41,358 nucleotides of DNA. Origin: a virus. Its lineage: Duplodnaviria; Heunggongvirae; Uroviricota; Caudoviricetes. The stretch lies in IMG/VR virus record IMGVR_UViG_2740892232_000004. One strand, given 5' to 3'. Under the pieces are notes generated by a model. It ran no database searches and was not told the DNA's origin. It was given only the letters and a program-made list of their open reading frames with translations. This document shows positions 6,301 through 36,027 of this stretch, piece after piece. Numbering within the stretch: the first letter of the stretch is position 1; each line of letters begins with the position of its first letter. A program made the translations under genes and the position numbers.

Positions 6301-6512
6301 GGAGACGGAAGAACCACAGAACCGCCACTATAAGTGCCCGCCCCAGTTACCGTATAACCGGTATCCAGAACCAATTCTGTTACGTTTCCGTTCAGGTCAG
6401 ACACCTGAACAACCAGGTCTGATTTTCTGAAAATTCGAAAAGTATACGGAAACGATGTCGTAACGCCGTTACCGGTGTATTCGTTGTGGTCAACTTCGGT
6501 TGAGACCGTCAT
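3393..6512 (-). CDS. Tailspike/tail fibre: N-terminal particle-binding domain, central domain with sialidase-type Asp-box motifs, C-terminal intramolecular-chaperone (peptidase S74-like) domain
   Basis: 1039 aa; GGAGAT RBS; Asp-box-like SGDDGKTW and SSDLGTSW; C-terminal …TSDGTLK… region typical of auto-cleaving chaperone domains of endosialidases/tail fibres. Confidence 0.75.
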   Translation of the reverse strand: MTVSTEVDHNEYTGNGVTTSFPYTFRIFRKSDLVVQVSDLNGNVTELVLDTGYTVTGAGTYSGGSVVLPSPLATGWRITIDRVLDVVQETDLRNQGKFFPEVHEDAFDYLTMLIQQCFGWFRRALMKPSLLAKYYDAKQNKISNLADPSFEQDAVNNRSMRNYVDAAIAGVVGGFGWFIQYGSGAVYRTFQDKMRDAISPKDFGAVGDGINDDSTAISACLEASSPGYKIDGLGLTFKVSTLPDVSRFKNARFLFERIPGQPLFYASEDFIQGELFKITDTPWYNAWTQDKTFVYDNVIYAPFMAGDRHGVNNLHVAWVRSGDDGKTWTTPEWLTDLHENYPTVNYHCMSMGVVRNRLFAVIETRTVSGNKLQVAELWDRPMSRSLRAYGGITKAANQQVAYIRITDHGLFAGDFVNFSNSGVTGVTGNMTVTTVIDKNTFTVTTQNTQDVDQNNEGRYWSFGTSFHSSPWRKTSLGTIPSFVDGSTPVTEIHSFATISDNSFAVGYHNGDIGPRELGILYFSDAFGSPGSFVRRRIPAEYEANASEPCVKYYDGILYLTTRGTLSTQPGSSLHRSSDLGTSWNSLRFPNNVHHSNLPFAKVGDELIIFGSERAFGEWEGGEPDNRYAGNYPRTFMTRVNVNEWSLDNVEWVNVTDQIYQGGIVNSAVGVGSVCIKDNWLYYIFGGEDFLNPWSIGDNNRKYPYVHDGHPADLYCFRVKIKQEEFVSRDFVYGATPNRTLPTFMSTSGVRTVPVPVDFTDDVAVQSLTVHAGTSGQVRAEVKLEGNYAIIAKKVPSDDVTAQRLIVSGGETTSSADGAMITLHGSGSSTPRRAVYNALEHLFENGDVKPYLDNVNALGGPGNRFSTVYLGSNPVVTSDGTLKTEPVSPDEALLDAWGDVRYIAYKWLNAVAIKGEEGARIHHGVIAQQLRDVLISHGLMEEESTTCRYAFLCYDDYPAVYDDVITGQREMPLTDNDGSIIVDEDDNPVMVMEDIIERVEITPAGSRWGVRPDLLFYIEAAWQRREMDKIKERIQSLEER

Positions 6513-6615
6513 GTTAAATCTCCAGATAGTCGCAGCACCCGTTGCGCCGCATATCTGGTTATTCTATTACCTGGAAAACCACATATGGATAGAAAGGCTG
6601 TAAATACGAATAGAT

Positions 6616-6632
6616 ATTACCTTTCAGGTAAT
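6616..6632. repeat. Palindromic operator-like motif ATTACCT-TTC-AGGTAAT (copy 1)
   Basis: Perfect 7-3-7 inverted repeat in the intergenic region between tailspike start and the LexA-box gene; an ATTACCT half-site also at 6566-6572. Confidence 0.55.
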
Positions 6633-6668
6633 TTGCAAAACGTGCTGGATAGCAAACAAATTATTTGA

Positions 6669-6688
6669 TACTGTATAAATATACAGTT
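6669..6688 (+). promoter_or_regulatory. LexA (SOS) box
   Basis: TACTGTATAAATATACAGTT = CTGT-N8-ACAG with AT-rich spacer, overlapping a TATAAA-like -10; about 20 nt upstream of the ATG at 6708. Confidence 0.7.
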
Positions 6689-6707
6689 ATTGCATGGAGA
6701 AGATAAG

Positions 6708-6965
6708 ATGCAGCAGTATCACTATCCACTGGAAGACGGATTTACCGAAAGGATTCACACGCCGGGAGGCGTCAGGTCACTGGTGGAGGGATCGCACTTG
6801 ATGAAATTACTCCGGGATCTCGATAAGGATGGATTTAATGTCGATGGCCCACTTGCCGAACTGACTGCACTGATTAACTACGTCACCAGCTCACAGATGT
6901 CTATGCAGGATCTGCAAACACATCTCGACTATTGTGCCGAACAATTACGAAAACAAACCCGGTAA
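6708..6965 (+). CDS. Small SOS-regulated antirepressor candidate (stand-alone copy of the BRO-N protein C-terminal domain)
   Basis: ATG with GGAGAAG RBS; residues ~9-80 align to the C-terminal 75 aa of the 8114-8824 protein (shared …PLxxG…IH[ST]PxGV…LMxLL…DG…AELT…DxQTH…Y). Confidence 0.6.
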   Translation: MQQYHYPLEDGFTERIHTPGGVRSLVEGSHLMKLLRDLDKDGFNVDGPLAELTALINYVTSSQMSMQDLQTHLDYCAEQLRKQTR

Positions 6966-6987
6966 ATTTAAAGGCCGCAAGAGCGGC

Positions 6988-7716
6988 CTATCGTTTCGCT
7001 TTGTGCTCGTCCCAGCACGTTTTGCACCATGCCATTAAGCCGTCCGCATTTTGATTATTAGGGTAAAAGCTGGTCCGTTTTCTGCGGACATTACAAATTG
7101 GGCACCACTTCATATGGCGTGTATTCTTTGGGCCATCGAGACACCTTGCACACCACTTAGTCAATCCATCTGGATTTTTTGACGATTTCCGGAATTTGTC
7201 ATATGGAAGGTTTATTCTGCATCGCAAACACTGCTTGCGGCCACTTGAAACTCTGTTAGCTGATTCTTCTTTTGGCGGCGATACAGAAGGTATTCTTGCT
7301 GGCTCTGATACTGCCTGAGGTGCTTTTTTAGATGACTGAGACGATATGTCATCACCAGGGAATCTTCCATGATATGCCGGACGCATTGATACTCCAGGTG
7401 GAAGCTCAGCTGTAAACGGCTTTGGCTGAATCAGTTGCCTCTCTTTTGCTAACTCCTGCTGTTTACAATATGTCTGGATTACCGCACTATCATAAGCAGG
7501 AGGTGCGGAAATATTAGGCGCATTACCTCCAGTTTTTTGAAACTGAGTAGAGGTGTGTTCTATCACCTGTGTACGATTAATCGTTATCTCCCCATCTTCG
7601 GTCTTTATCGTTTTGTTATGATTAACGACCGTACGATCAGAGATCTTAGTCTTGTTCTGGTTGATAACGTAAATAATCACCGCAACCACACCAACAACTA
7701 TCCAGAAAACTTCCAT
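6988..7716 (-). CDS. Membrane-anchored protein with tandem CxxC zinc-ribbon repeats
   Basis: N-terminal TM helix, S/P-rich linker, C-terminal four CxxC pairs with repeated …DGLxxWCxxC; GAGGAAAA RBS. Confidence 0.6.
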   Translation of the reverse strand: MEVFWIVVGVVAVIIYVINQNKTKISDRTVVNHNKTIKTEDGEITINRTQVIEHTSTQFQKTGGNAPNISAPPAYDSAVIQTYCKQQELAKERQLIQPKPFTAELPPGVSMRPAYHGRFPGDDISSQSSKKAPQAVSEPARIPSVSPPKEESANRVSSGRKQCLRCRINLPYDKFRKSSKNPDGLTKWCARCLDGPKNTRHMKWCPICNVRRKRTSFYPNNQNADGLMAWCKTCWDEHKAKR

Positions 7717-7735
7717 TGCTTTTCCTCACAATAAC

Positions 7736-7752
7736 ATTACCTTAAAGGTAAT
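7736..7752. repeat. Palindromic motif ATTACCT-TAA-AGGTAAT (copy 2)
   Basis: Perfect inverted repeat 19 nt upstream of the ATG of the 6988-7716 gene. Confidence 0.55.
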
Positions 7753-7828
7753 ATCTTGCTTTCAGGTGATCAAGCGTTAAACGCCACCAACCAAATACGG
7801 TTGATTTTGATATTTCTCCGCGTTTATC

Positions 7829-7845
7829 ATTACCTTTGCGGTAAA
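7829..7845. repeat. Palindromic motif ATTACCT-TTG-CGGTAAA (copy 3, degenerate right arm)
   Basis: TTACC-N5-GGTAA core conserved; TTGATA -35-like hexamer about 17 bp upstream. Confidence 0.45.
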
Positions 7846-7935
7846 TTTACATCGCACTCCTCTTGTGCCATAGTAATCGGGCACTGGCAAAATCCAGTGC
7901 CGGGATTGGCGTCCCGGGTTACTAAGTGGCGCATA

Positions 7936-7957
7936 CCACGCCAGACGTGGTTTTTTT
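7936..7957 (+). terminator. Rho-independent terminator-like hairpin in a noncoding region
   Basis: CCACG-CCAGA-CGTGG followed by T7; preceded by a 9-bp stem-loop (GGCACTGG…CCAGTGCC) at about 7879-7902. Confidence 0.45.
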
Positions 7958-8113
7958 ATGCGTTAAGCACAGCTATATCCGAATTATGGTGGGCTGGGCA
8001 GGGGTCCGAAAGGACGCCGGTACCACTTAGGCCGGTACGCCAACCTTGTCCAGTTCACCACCAGTAATTGGCGTTGCGGTGGTGATTAAAATCACTAAGT
8101 GGAGATAACCACC

Positions 8114-8824
8114 ATGGCTAATGCTCAAACTTCCATCTTCAAATTTGAATCTGTTAACCCTATCCGTTCCATCATTATCGATGGCCAACCATGGTTTGTA
8201 GCCCAAGACGTTTGTAGTGCGCTGCGTATCCAAAACGTCACCCAAGCACTTGAAAAACTGGATGATGATGAAAGGTCTATGTTCAACATAGGGCATGAAC
8301 ATCGTGCAATTTTTGACAGCCGAGTAAAAGAGATCAACATCATCTCCGAGTCAGGCCTCTACACACTGATCCTCCGCTGCCGCGACGCAGTGACACCAGG
8401 CACTATCCCCTACCGCTTTCGTAAATGGGTTACGGGTGAGGTTCTTCCTCAGATCCGCCGCACCGGAAGCTACATTAAAAACTCGCTCCCGCAGGAAGAA
8501 CGCATAAAGATGGTTGCCGACCAGGTGGCCAACGCCACGGCGTCAGCAGTAATGCAGGCGATGAAGATAGAGAACAAAACCTACAGCGCCCCACTGAATC
8601 CCGGCTACCGCAGCCTGATTCATTCGCCGTCTGGTGTTCTCGGCCTGACGGAGAACTCACTGCTGATGAATCTGCTGAACCAGTTACAGGACGACGGGCA
8701 CGACGTATCGGGCGCGGCGGCGGAGCTGACCACCATGTTCTGCTACATCGTCGGTGTGAGCAAATGCCTGCGTGATATCCAGACCCACGCGGAATACATC
8801 AACGACAAGGCAGGGTTCTTCTGA
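8114..8824 (+). CDS. BRO-N domain antirepressor-like protein
   Basis: ATG with GGAG RBS; N-terminal BRO-N-like segment (FVAQDVCSAL…ISESGLYTLILR…FRKWV); C-terminal domain homologous to the 6708-6965 product. Confidence 0.75.
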   Translation: MANAQTSIFKFESVNPIRSIIIDGQPWFVAQDVCSALRIQNVTQALEKLDDDERSMFNIGHEHRAIFDSRVKEINIISESGLYTLILRCRDAVTPGTIPYRFRKWVTGEVLPQIRRTGSYIKNSLPQEERIKMVADQVANATASAVMQAMKIENKTYSAPLNPGYRSLIHSPSGVLGLTENSLLMNLLNQLQDDGHDVSGAAAELTTMFCYIVGVSKCLRDIQTHAEYINDKAGFF

Positions 8825-8895
8825 CGGGCGGTGGCACAGGGATGTGCCTTTAAATAATTCTGTACAGATTGCAGACTGTGGGTGAATAGCGTACT

Positions 8896-8912
8896 ATTAC
8901 CTTAAAGGTAAA
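8896..8912. repeat. Palindromic motif ATTACCT-TAA-AGGTAAA (copy 4)
   Basis: Directly abuts the AGGAGG RBS of the 8924 ORF. Confidence 0.5.
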
Positions 8913-8923
8913 GGAGGCGCGAT

Positions 8924-9091
8924 ATGACAGCGTTGAAAAATCGTACTCAGCACAATGAACAAGCCAAGCAATGCTGGGATGTCATTGGAAAAGTTATGCT
9001 TGGCCGCGCAAGCAAAGAGCGCGACAAGGATATGGTTTACCAGACAGGAACATCTTTCAGCGACTTCAAGGCGGCATTTCGCTCCAAATAG
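8924..9091 (+). CDS. Small hydrophilic protein (55 aa), unknown function
   Basis: Strong AGGAGG RBS 6 nt before ATG; below the ORF-track size cutoff; first gene of a two-gene cassette. Confidence 0.45.
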   Translation: MTALKNRTQHNEQAKQCWDVIGKVMLGRASKERDKDMVYQTGTSFSDFKAAFRSK

Positions 9092-9111
9092 AAGCACATC
9101 AGGAGTTTTCC

Positions 9112-9552
9112 TTGAAGTTTAACATTAGAATATCTAATAGTTTTCTACATGGGGAAAGCAACACCCCTTTCGCTGTAGACGGACCTTTCCTTACTGATGA
9201 TGAAATAAAAATCATACAAAGTTTTTTAGAGGATGTTGCCAATGGAAGGGCGCTTGTTGGAAAAAACAAGCCCTCGTGGGTTGATGATAACCATGATAAA
9301 ATTCCCGGCTCAGACAATTATGAGCAAGAGAATTATTGGCATTATCATTGTGGGCCAACATGGTATCCAAACACATTTAAGAATTATACCATTAACTTAA
9401 ATTTCAACCCTGGCGGAAGGCATTCTAATGAATGCATTCATTATGCAAAAAATGATAATGAAATTGTCATTGTTGGATTTTCAAGAGAACACATACCTTT
9501 CCTTTCATCAGATGGAAACAACAATCCGCTTTTTAATGATGAAGAAGAATAG
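9112..9552 (+). CDS. AT-rich moron protein (146 aa from proposed TTG start), unknown function
   Basis: Visibly lower GC than flanks; AGGAG 6 nt before TTG; no in-frame ATG except the overlapping one at 8971; N/D-rich product with single CGP and C-H pairs. Confidence 0.5.
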   Translation: MKFNIRISNSFLHGESNTPFAVDGPFLTDDEIKIIQSFLEDVANGRALVGKNKPSWVDDNHDKIPGSDNYEQENYWHYHCGPTWYPNTFKNYTINLNFNPGGRHSNECIHYAKNDNEIVIVGFSREHIPFLSSDGNNNPLFNDEEE

Positions 9553-9573
9553 CCCGCGCTGCGGGCTTTTTTG
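9551..9573 (+). terminator. Rho-independent terminator of the moron cassette
   Basis: AGCCCGC-GCT-GCGGGCT followed by T6. Confidence 0.7.
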
Positions 9574-9644
9574 TGGACGAAACAAAAGTCAGTGCTACAC
9601 TCATTGACGCCACATTGAGGTGGCTTATAGATGGAAATTTCACA

Positions 9645-9806
9645 ATGAAAAAAGCATTTGCTGCACTGTTCGTTTTGTTGTCTCTGGTAGCTTCAACTCA
9701 GGCCTTTGCCGGTCGTTGTCAGCACGACAGCGACACTGCTGCTGACGGCTCCCGCTGCGGTGGGCGTTCTGCGGACTCCCGTCCGGGCGGCGGTGGCATT
9801 CGTTAA
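9645..9806 (+). CDS. Small predicted secreted protein (53 aa)
   Basis: Signal-peptide-like N-terminus (MKKAFAALFVLLSLVASTQAFA), Gly-rich mature part with 2 Cys; TTGACG-16-TATAGA promoter-like elements upstream. Confidence 0.3.
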   Translation: MKKAFAALFVLLSLVASTQAFAGRCQHDSDTAADGSRCGGRSADSRPGGGGIR

Positions 9807-22040: not shown

Positions 22041-22091
22041 CTTCTTTCTCCATTAGTGGGTCTGTTACGACCCACAGGTTAATAACAGGCG

Positions 22092-26073: not shown

Positions 26074-26090
26074 ATTACCTTTCAGGTAAC
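26074..26090. repeat. Palindromic motif ATTACCT-TTC-AGGTAAC (copy 5)
   Basis: Upstream of the portal operon; consensus TTGACA -35 hexamer on the plus strand 17 bp upstream of the left arm. Confidence 0.55.
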
Positions 26091-26401: not shown

Positions 26402-26478
26402 TCTCAGCGTTGTGGCATTAGCTCAGTTGGACAGAGCAACCGCCTTCTAAGCGGTTGGTCGCAGGTTCGAATCCTGCA
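26402..26478 (+). tRNA. tRNA-Arg (anticodon UCU)
   Basis: Folded by hand: 7-bp acceptor stem GUGGCAU/AUGCCAC, D-arm GCUC…GAGC, anticodon stem ACCGC/GCGGU with loop CUUCUAA, T-arm GCAGG-UUCGAAU-CCUGC, discriminator G, encoded CCA. Confidence 0.85.
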
Positions 26479-26531
26479 TGCCACGCCAGAATCACGCCTA
26501 AGGACCGTGATGCCAGAAGTTCCAGGTGCTT

Positions 26532-35442: not shown

Positions 35443-36027
35443 ATGAAAAGTATCCAGGACGTCCGCAGGCAAAATCTCAACGACTTGATCGACCGTGAAT
35501 TCAATGGTGTTCAGACGCGGATGGCAGAAAAACTTGGAACTCAGGCAAATCTGGTAAACCGCTGGGCTCTTGGCAAGAAGGTTATCGGCGACCAGGTTGC
35601 ACGAAAAATTGAAGCTGCCGCCAATAAACCCCGTAACTGGCTTGATATTGATCGTTCGCTTTCTCAGGAGGGTTTTCAGCCTGTCGGCCCGAGCGATATA
35701 GGTCAGCTGGCGGCTCACAACCTGGAACGCTGGATGAGCGAAAGCCGCGACCTTTCAACACAGGGAAAACTTCACCGCGCATCCGGCGTCGCCCAGGTGA
35801 CAATCAGCCGCCTGTTAAACAATGAGGTCAGCGTTTCCATTTCCACCCTGGAGAATGTTGCATCCGCATTCGGGCGTCACGGATATGAACTACTGATTCA
35901 CCCGCACGACCCTGCGACTATCAACTATGACCGCTCACGCTACGCATTGTTACCCGAAACCGAGAAAGCAAAGATCGAAAGTTACATTGAATTTGTCATC
36001 AACCAGAACGAAAAAAGCAAACAATAA
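35443..36027 (+). CDS. CI-like repressor with two HTH-like segments and no LexA-type (S24) autocleavage domain
   Basis: 194 aa; HTH-like regions around residues 25-45 and 105-135; no GDSM / Ser-Lys dyad motif; no obvious SD upstream of ATG. Confidence 0.65.
   Translation: MKSIQDVRRQNLNDLIDREFNGVQTRMAEKLGTQANLVNRWALGKKVIGDQVARKIEAAANKPRNWLDIDRSLSQEGFQPVGPSDIGQLAAHNLERWMSESRDLSTQGKLHRASGVAQVTISRLLNNEVSVSISTLENVASAFGRHGYELLIHPHDPATINYDRSRYALLPETEKAKIESYIEFVINQNEKSKQ

Follow-up and report, generated by a model that had tools for sequence, protein, structure and literature searches.

Organization of the locus

The 41,358-nucleotide (nt) viral sequence IMGVR_UViG_2740892232_000004 from IMG/VR, which we refer to at its full length as the window, carries two related rightwards-transcribed genes close to its left end. 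The first, ant, encodes an 85-amino acid (aa) protein and is preceded by a LexA (SOS) box, and the second encodes a protein with an N-terminal Bro-N domain and an Ant-like C-terminal domain (Bro-N/Ant-C) and is preceded by matches to the IsrK and C4 RNAs. A leftwards-transcribed open reading frame (ORF) lies between them, and the gene for a CI-like repressor, rep, is located far to the right (Table 1). Positions 6400-9100 are 91-97% identical to Escherichia phages TL-2011b, HEMP4, phiv142-3, vB_EcoP_ZX5 (ZX5) and phiV10, with the Salmonella epsilon15-like phages as more remote relatives, and on these identities the window is evidently a phage or prophage of the epsilon15-like group (Uetakevirus). 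Of 5426 complete E. coli genomes, 534 have a match to the stretch 6600-8830, full length in 102 of them, and nearly all of the matches are chromosomal. We read the region as two antirepressor cassettes with one common effector domain and different inputs.

The ant gene and its LexA box

The product of ant has a strong match to the 'Anti-repressor protein' chain of a crystal structure (PDB 5D50_E; E 4.1e-47, residues 2-84 against 3-85) and is 88% identical to the annotated ant product of phage SPC32H (tblastn), whose record places ant at the equivalent locus, between the tailspike gene and a large injection-type gene. Identity is 84-88% to the Ant proteins of the Salmonella phages, 84-100% to stand-alone orthologues and 100% to the Ant of ZX5. 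The small ant gene is intact in all phage records but one (YDC107_2, a two-piece match).

The first-pass annotation of this DNA had reported a near-consensus LexA box (CTGT-N8-ACAG) at ant, and this is borne out. The box, 20 nt upstream of the gene, has two mismatches to the 20-nt consensus and is the sole site in the 41 kb of the window with three or fewer, where 0.00 are expected (100 shuffles). The shorter motif CTGT-N8-ACAG is present in three copies (0.45 expected); those at 22062 and 26604 were rejected as SOS boxes, having more than three mismatches to the 20-nt consensus and spacers that are not AT-rich. Alignment of the 200 nt upstream of ant in the window, phiV10, SPC32H, SPC32N and epsilon15 (208 nt aligned) puts the box in the same columns in all five phages, and the one base at which SPC32H and SPC32N differ in the aligned 208 nt is a C to A change in the ACAG half-site (CTGTATGTTTATACAG versus ...ATAAAG). 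Kim and Ryu (2013, J Virol) are said to have found that LexA binds the SPC32H box, and that the mutation in the SPC32N box makes Ant constitutive and SPC32N lytic. An exact TACTGT-N8-ACAG stands upstream of ant in TL-2011b, phiV10, ZX5, SPC32H, epsilon15 and an AntA-carrying prophage (L010), one half-site reads ATGT in two Klebsiella phages and a metagenomic prophage, and no LexA box was found upstream of ant in prophage L013.

The box had also been described as overlapping the ant promoter. A TGGATA hexamer, a 17-nt spacer ending in TG and the hexamer TACTGT are all invariant in the five-phage alignment, and from this conservation we infer an extended -10 promoter in which the first half of the LexA box doubles as the -10 hexamer, so that the box would begin there. 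A consensus promoter scan made no call at this site, and the overlap is thus suggested by the conserved elements and not by the scan.

The repressor and its operators

Rep is homologous over its full length to the 'Repressor' chain of the same structure (5D50_A); the SPC32H Ant-Rep structures, PDB 5D50 and 5D4Z, are said to be those of Kim et al. (2016, PNAS). It has two helix-turn-helix (HTH)-type domains and no S24 autocleavage domain, as in an SPC32H-type repressor: all Pfam matches are to HTH_3 and related HTH families, none to Peptidase_S24 (PF00717) was obtained at E <= 0.1, and the C-terminal S24 domain with a Ser-Lys dyad that marks LexA/CI-type autocleavable repressors was not found by Pfam. 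This agrees with the initial observation that the CI-like repressor has no LexA-type protease domain. Rep is 43% identical to the epsilon15 repressor, and the match to SPC32H Rep is comparably distant.

The palindrome TTACC-N5-GGTAA is present in 13 copies in the window against 0.5 expected, with pairs spaced by 18, 48, 62, 62 and 93 base pairs (bp). In addition to the sites around rep and the two cassettes, others precede the terminase and portal blocks. In the GenBank record of epsilon15 the equivalent sites are annotated as protein_bind 'repressor', including one upstream of the ant homologue gp19, and the half-sites are unchanged between the window and the Salmonella phages despite the divergence of Rep. 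At the operator next to the isrK promoter the half-sites are invariant and the spacer variable in six phages. As these palindromes precede early and late operons as well as cargo operons, Rep looks like a direct repressor acting across the genome. A tRNA-Arg gene (anticodon TCT, 26412-26488, + strand) lies close to the operator at 26075, on the strand opposite the structural genes.

The Bro-N/Ant-C protein and its RNA leader

The N-terminal part of the second protein is a Bro-N domain (Pfam PF02498, 9.6e-20, residues 17-112) and the protein as a whole matches phrog_130 ('anti-repressor Ant', 3e-56). The proposed homology of the 85-aa protein to the C-terminal ~75 aa of the BRO-N protein is confirmed by pairwise alignment (residues 2-75 of Ant with 155-228, 31 of 74 identical or 42%, E 2e-15) and by a search of PHROG profiles, in which phrog_450 ('unknown function') matches both Ant and the Bro-N protein (9e-48 and 5e-36). 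The 1.4 kb said to separate the two genes holds from start to start, with the gap from stop to start being 1.15 kb. The sole sequence match of the Bro-N protein in the PDB is to SPC32H Ant (residues 155-231, E 3e-13, covering 3-79 of 86), and an AlphaFold2 model of the 236-aa protein (15-sequence alignment) is poor, with a mean pLDDT (predicted local distance difference test) of 42.8. It is 81% identical to ZX5 ORF4 overall and about 99% from residue 75. In phiV10 (L005, 3071-3750) the gene is broken into ORFs of 194 and 29 aa, and a 183-aa variant (P0147) has lost the first half of its Ant-like domain through an internal deletion, so that the fused paralogue, unlike the small ant, appears to decay in some lineages.

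A search of the Bro-N cassette for LexA boxes found none within three mismatches of the 20-nt consensus. Its predicted promoter, conserved in six phages, puts the +1 position close to 7881, where the IsrK match starts; the c4-a1b1 family (RF03163) also matches here (7868-7920), overlapping the 5' part of IsrK, with a score of 44.1 bits that is slightly below the gathering score of 46.7. The b2 loop of C4 (8 nt) is exactly complementary to both b1 and b', and a2 (7 nt) to both a1 and a', and b' overlaps the Shine-Dalgarno GGAG of the Bro-N gene. Whole-molecule duplex energies of C4 with the leader and with IsrK discriminate weakly (3 of 300 and 30 of 300 shuffles reach the observed value), and we therefore rely on the exact complementary words and on covariation across phages.

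The a and b pairings covary three ways across six phages, with four b specificities and two a specificities (Table 1); in Klebsiella phage Kp4865-1 all three a elements are altered in concert (TTGAGAC with GTCTCAA). Cognate pairings span 7-9 bp and non-cognate b pairings 4-6 bp with one exception, that of the Klebsiella ST11 (KpST11) b2 loop on the b' of the window (9 bp, G-U included). The b elements and loops of the window differ from those of TL-2011b, phiV10 and ZX5, and its C4 specificity is therefore evidently distinct from that of its closest relatives. An ORF starting at ATG 7986, inside C4, ends after 14 codons at TAG 8028-8030, and no coupled leader ORF of the icd or orf45 type was found upstream of the Bro-N gene in the window. 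The Bro-N gene thus appears not to be under LexA control, having a promoter of its own with a Rep operator and an IsrK/C4 leader of the P1 immI type. The first-pass annotation had grouped the SOS-controlled antirepressor with its BRO-N paralogue; the small Ant is indeed encoded by the LexA-box gene, but the paralogue is predicted to lie outside the SOS circuit.

Table 1. Features of the window and C4 specificities in related phages. Coordinates are window positions; strand is left empty where it does not apply.
Feature	Coordinates	Strand	Details
Candidate Rep operators, all sites	6617, 7737, 7830, 8897, 26075, 29180, 29198, 33024, 33086, 35325, 35373, 36085, 36147		TTACC-N5-GGTAA
Candidate Rep operator, tailspike-ant intergenic	6616-6632		ATTACCTTTCAGGTAAT; TTACC-N5-GGTAA; half-sites invariant in five phages
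Putative ant promoter	6644-6674	+	-35 TGGATA 6644-6649; extended -10 TG 6666-6667; -10 TACTGT 6669-6674
LexA (SOS) box	6669-6688		TACTGTATAAATATACAGTT; 18/20 match to 20-nt consensus TACTGTATATATATACAGTA
ant, 85-aa antirepressor, SPC32H Ant orthologue	6708-6965	+	ATG 6708; stop 6965; GGAG 6696-6699
Bidirectional terminator-like hairpin	6972-6989		After ant and after the 242-aa ORF
242-aa membrane-anchored Cys-rich ORF	6988-7716	-	phrog_6762 (unknown function); between the two cassettes
Candidate Rep operator	7737-7751		TTACCTTAAAGGTAA; upstream of the 242-aa ORF, 21 bp before its start codon
Candidate Rep operator	7830-7844		TTACCTTTGCGGTAA; abuts -35 of the isrK promoter
Putative isrK promoter	7846-7874	+	TTTACA-17 nt-(TG)CATAGT; conserved in six phages; ends 7 nt before IsrK start
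IsrK small RNA / c4-a1b1 element	7881-7957	+	Rfam RF01394, 67.7 bits (gathering score 50)
IsrK parts	a1 7906-7912; b1 7922-7929; intrinsic terminator 7935-7957	+	a1 TTGGCGT; b1 CTAAGTGG; by complementarity and terminator scan
C4 antisense RNA	7982-8065	+	Rfam RF01695, 66 bits (gathering score 45), full-length match
C4 parts	b2 loop 8023-8030; a2 8037-8043	+	b2 CCACTTAG; a2 ACGCCAA; by complementarity and covariation
Predicted C4 targets in Bro-N leader	8068-8102	+	a' TTGGCGT 8068-8074; b' CTAAGTGG 8095-8102
Bro-N/Ant-C antirepressor, 236 aa	8114-8824	+	Bro-N residues 17-112 (8162-8449); Ant-like residues 155-231 (8576-8806)
Candidate Rep operator	8897-8911		Upstream of cargo ORFs 8924-9552
Candidate Rep operators flanking rep (rep/cro region)	35325, 35373, 36085, 36147		TTACC-N5-GGTAA
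rep, 194-aa non-cleavable repressor (no S24)	35443-36027	+	PDB 5D50_A ('Repressor'), E 3.5e-42, full length
C4 specificity, window			b element CTAAGTGG; b2 loop CCACTTAG
C4 specificity, TL-2011b/phiV10/ZX5			b element CTAAAAGG; b2 loop CCTTTTAG
C4 specificity, Klebsiella phage ST11-OXA245phi3.2			b element CTAAACGG; b2 loop CCGTTTAG
C4 specificity, Klebsiella phage Kp4865-1			b element CTACAAAGG; b2 loop CCTTTGTAG

The Ant domain in other phages

An exhaustive search of 1.84 billion proteins with a profile of stand-alone Ants and the Bro-N C-domain recovered only 59 representative clusters, and the fusions were seen only in this way, a word-indexed homology search with Ant returning stand-alone homologues only. 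Most Ant-domain proteins are stand-alone and 80-95 aa long, and the longer ones carry the domain C-terminally, behind a Bro-N (P0124, P0174), AntA (P0122) or Phage_pRha (P0133, P0175) domain. Stand-alone and fused forms share 19 invariant alignment columns. The C-domain of the AntA fusion P0122 is 92% identical to that of the window and its N-domain is unrelated. All three alternative fusions are in epsilon15-like prophages, at the equivalent locus, beside a stand-alone ant and downstream of IsrK and C4, and IsrK and C4 are found upstream of the fused gene in 10 of 10 loci examined; SPC32H and epsilon15 have neither IsrK nor C4 (Rfam) and no fusion gene.

The alignment of the Bro-N C-domain takes in almost all of the Ant chain that was crystallised with Rep, which makes it reasonable, by analogy, to regard the fused C-domain as a repressor-binding module. 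We tentatively suggest, at somewhat less than even chances, that a portable repressor-binding domain exists on its own as the SPC32H-type Ant and, in many epsilon15-like prophages, also behind Bro-N, AntA or Rha N-domains that are interchangeable, there under IsrK/C4 control, such that one repressor is attacked both through LexA and the SOS response and through an RNA-specified anti-immunity function; the small Ant and its fused paralogue might also co-assemble. If true, this would be the first functional and structural assignment of the C-terminal domain in the large but little understood Bro/AntA/Rha 'antirepressor' class, with the Bro-N, AntA and Rha N-domains as accessory parts. A literature search, with the primary SPC32H paper outside its scope, yielded no account of homology linking stand-alone Ant to the C-terminal domains found in Bro-N, AntA or Rha fusions, of the constant pairing of Ant with a fusion at a single locus, or of C4-specificity diversification in this phage group; the abstract of Kim and Ryu (2013) reportedly mentions 'numerous potential Ant homologues'.

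Proposed regulation and alternative explanations

We consider it very probable that the region combines an SPC32H-type LexA/Ant/Rep SOS switch with an IsrK/C4-controlled Bro-N/Ant-C antirepressor. In a lysogen, host LexA would occupy the box that starts at the ant -10 hexamer; on DNA damage LexA would be removed and the 85-aa Ant made, which would bind Rep and strip it off the TTACC-N5-GGTAA operators, derepressing the whole phage. Occupancy of these sites by LexA and Rep in the window phage is a prediction from the sites themselves. The mode of induction proposed at the outset, in which relief from LexA repression yields an antirepressor directed at a repressor that is not cleaved, is supported by the homology of Ant and Rep to the SPC32H pair and by the placing of the LexA box in the same columns. 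In the second cassette most transcripts would end at the IsrK terminator, and those that read through would contain C4 and the Bro-N/Ant-C gene. Pairing of a2 and b2 with a' and b' would block Bro-N/Ant-C translation, as b' covers the Shine-Dalgarno sequence, and the decoy copies a1 and b1 in IsrK could lift this block, so that synthesis would be set by Rep at the promoter together with C4/IsrK pairing. The small gene would thus be the SOS-responsive trigger, with the Bro-N protein under RNA control. By analogy with Ant, Bro-N/Ant-C most likely inactivates Rep via its Ant-like C-domain, and its role is probably either anti-immunity on superinfection or reinforcement and commitment once Rep falls, like P1 Ant. 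Overexpression of ZX5 ORF4 lowers lysogen numbers about 1000-fold, from 1e9 to 1e6 (PMC9782041).

Several observations weigh against this interpretation. The ZX5 assay used an overexpressed protein tagged with glutathione S-transferase (GST), and its read-out was lysogen numbers and not Rep binding. The fused C-domain is only ~40% identical to Ant, and could have another partner or a purely oligomerising role. Rep is much more diverged (43% identity to epsilon15 Rep) than Ant (84-88%), and binding of Ant to its cognate Rep is therefore an assumption; such high conservation of an antirepressor beside low conservation of its repressor is unusual for a pair expected to co-evolve. Finally, the operator at 7830-7844 is centred near -44 of the isrK promoter, and since repressors can activate from about this position, Rep might activate the isrK promoter and supply C4 in the lysogen.

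One alternative is that Bro-N/Ant-C targets not its own Rep but that of heteroimmune epsilon15-like prophages, as a trans-acting agent of anti-immunity or cross-talk like P22 Ant or the Gifsy antirepressors. The two paralogues in this genome are 42% identical as against 84-100% among small Ant orthologues, which fits different partners, the C4 b-specificity differs from that of the closest relatives as in P1/P7 heteroimmunity, and antirepressor cross-talk is documented in Salmonella (PMC7380047). However, ORF4 lowered the lysogeny of ZX5 itself, and the operator half-sites are identical across the group, so that the DNA-binding surface of Rep is probably common to it; a foreign target strikes us as rather unlikely. 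A second alternative is that the Ant-like C-domain only tetramerises the protein, whose action, for instance as a transcription factor or a competitor at operators, would lie with its Bro-N domain of the DNA-binding type, and which would not bind Rep. An oligomerisation function of the shared domain follows from the tetrameric state of SPC32H Ant, the domain is joined to three DNA-binding-type N-domains (Bro-N, AntA and Rha), and the reduction in ZX5 lysogeny does not report on Rep binding. We nonetheless think this unlikely, as the alignment to residues 3-79 of the 86-residue Ant chain takes in more than a sub-helix, the 19 invariant columns hold between stand-alone and fused forms, and in P0122 the N-domain is swapped at the same locus while the C-domain stays nearly identical, which argues that the C-domain is the system-specific part. 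Classical induction by RecA-stimulated self-cleavage of Rep, with the LexA box and small gene incidental, is the default model for CI-like repressors, but we found no support for it and consider it highly improbable, given that Rep lacks Peptidase_S24 and is homologous to a Rep crystallised with Ant, and that the LexA box is conserved, unique and mutated in the only difference between SPC32H and SPC32N in 208 nt.

Neighbouring genes and annotation

The 242-aa ORF between the cassettes is probably cargo outside the switch. Neither Klebsiella phage ST11-OXA245phi3.2 nor ZX5 has it between ant and IsrK, and the equivalent stretch of TL-2011b is annotated as a misc_feature only; its product has a membrane helix at the N-terminus and a C-terminus rich in Cys, with weak matches to Stc1, endonuclease VII and Lar-like zinc fingers. 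Further cargo ORFs (8924-9806, + strand) follow the Bro-N gene and are preceded by a Rep operator and a strong AAGGAGG; they encode a 55-aa protein (phrog_8607), a 193-aa protein (phrog_5954) and a membrane-associated 'moron' protein of 77 aa (phrog_14503). No Rfam match to the P22 sar antisense RNA is present within the window; TL-2011b has one at 7508-7575 (44.8 bits against a gathering score of 43), lying downstream of the part that it has in common with the window.

In these phages the small ant is usually annotated as 'hypothetical', the RNAs are unannotated or covered by ORFs, and the 'anti-repressor' label is given to the Bro-N protein only, all of which can now be corrected. In ZX5 (L009, 1950-2063) an 'ash family protein' coding sequence is called over C4, and in L013 (10001-10230) the first ~75 codons of the over-extended 319-aa Rha protein P0133 lie over IsrK and C4; these two gene calls are probably artefacts of annotation. 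The link between the Ant and Bro-N domains and the diversification of C4 specificity offer testable handles on cross-talk and immunity among enterobacterial podovirus prophages.

Comparison with known systems

The general arrangement, in which a repressor that is not cleavable is inactivated by a small protein under LexA repression, is shared with 186 Tum, Gifsy GfoA/GfhA and N15 AntC (PMC7380047). No sequence relationship of these proteins to Ant was detected, and the phage records found with an Ant domain all belong to the epsilon15-like group.

The second cassette resembles isrK-orf45-anrP of Gifsy-1, where IsrK activates AnrP translation in trans (Hershko-Shalev et al. 2016, PMC4825925), in having an IsrK with its own terminator, read-through to an antirepressor gene and translational control. 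Gifsy-1 also has a processed C4/CI-like RNA (STnc1160) downstream of IsrK, at the position of C4 in the window, and, separately, a small antirepressor under LexA control (Lemire et al. 2011, as cited in PMC7380047). The coupling through orf45 is not conserved, however, and the window has no antQ target. With immI of P1/P7 (c4, icd, ant), in which c4 RNA determines heteroimmunity and, at the ribosome-binding site, keeps ant from being translated (PMC12197685), the window shares an a1b1 element, a C4 RNA, a' and b' targets with b' at the ribosome-binding site of the antirepressor gene, and specificity loops that vary between relatives. It differs in having no icd-like leader ORF, with b' lying on the antirepressor gene's own Shine-Dalgarno sequence, and in that its antirepressor, in a podovirus, joins Bro-N to an SPC32H-Ant-like domain; no homology of this protein to P1 Ant was seen, though no search aimed at it was made. 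Control of Bro-type antirepressors by C4 and IsrK is, like the switch of the first cassette, of a known kind (P1, Gifsy-1).

ORF4 of ZX5, named 'anti-repressor', occupies the same locus and is 81% identical to Bro-N/Ant-C, with a small Ant that is 100% identical and IsrK and C4 upstream. The differences lie in the N-terminal 75 residues and in the C4 b-specificity (CTAAAAGG in ZX5 versus CTAAGTGG in the window), and the ZX5 paper is silent on the small Ant, LexA and the RNAs (PMC9782041).

The closest known system is that of SPC32H, with which the window shares the phage genus, the tailspike/injection-gene locus, an Ant of 88% identity, a Rep homologue lacking a protease domain, the columns of the LexA box and the operator half-sites. 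SPC32H Ant is described as tetrameric; it binds a pair of Rep dimers and breaks up the tetrameric form in which Rep binds DNA (PMC9638917). In this system cleavage of LexA leads to the synthesis of Ant, for which PMC7380047 cites Kim and Ryu 2013. Unlike SPC32H, the window has a 3-kb insertion with the Bro-N/Ant-C gene, IsrK and C4, and its Rep has diverged. As the orthologous SPC32H system has been published and structurally solved, the inference of an antirepression switch is not itself new, and the window is an E. coli member of a system already described and introduces no new principle.

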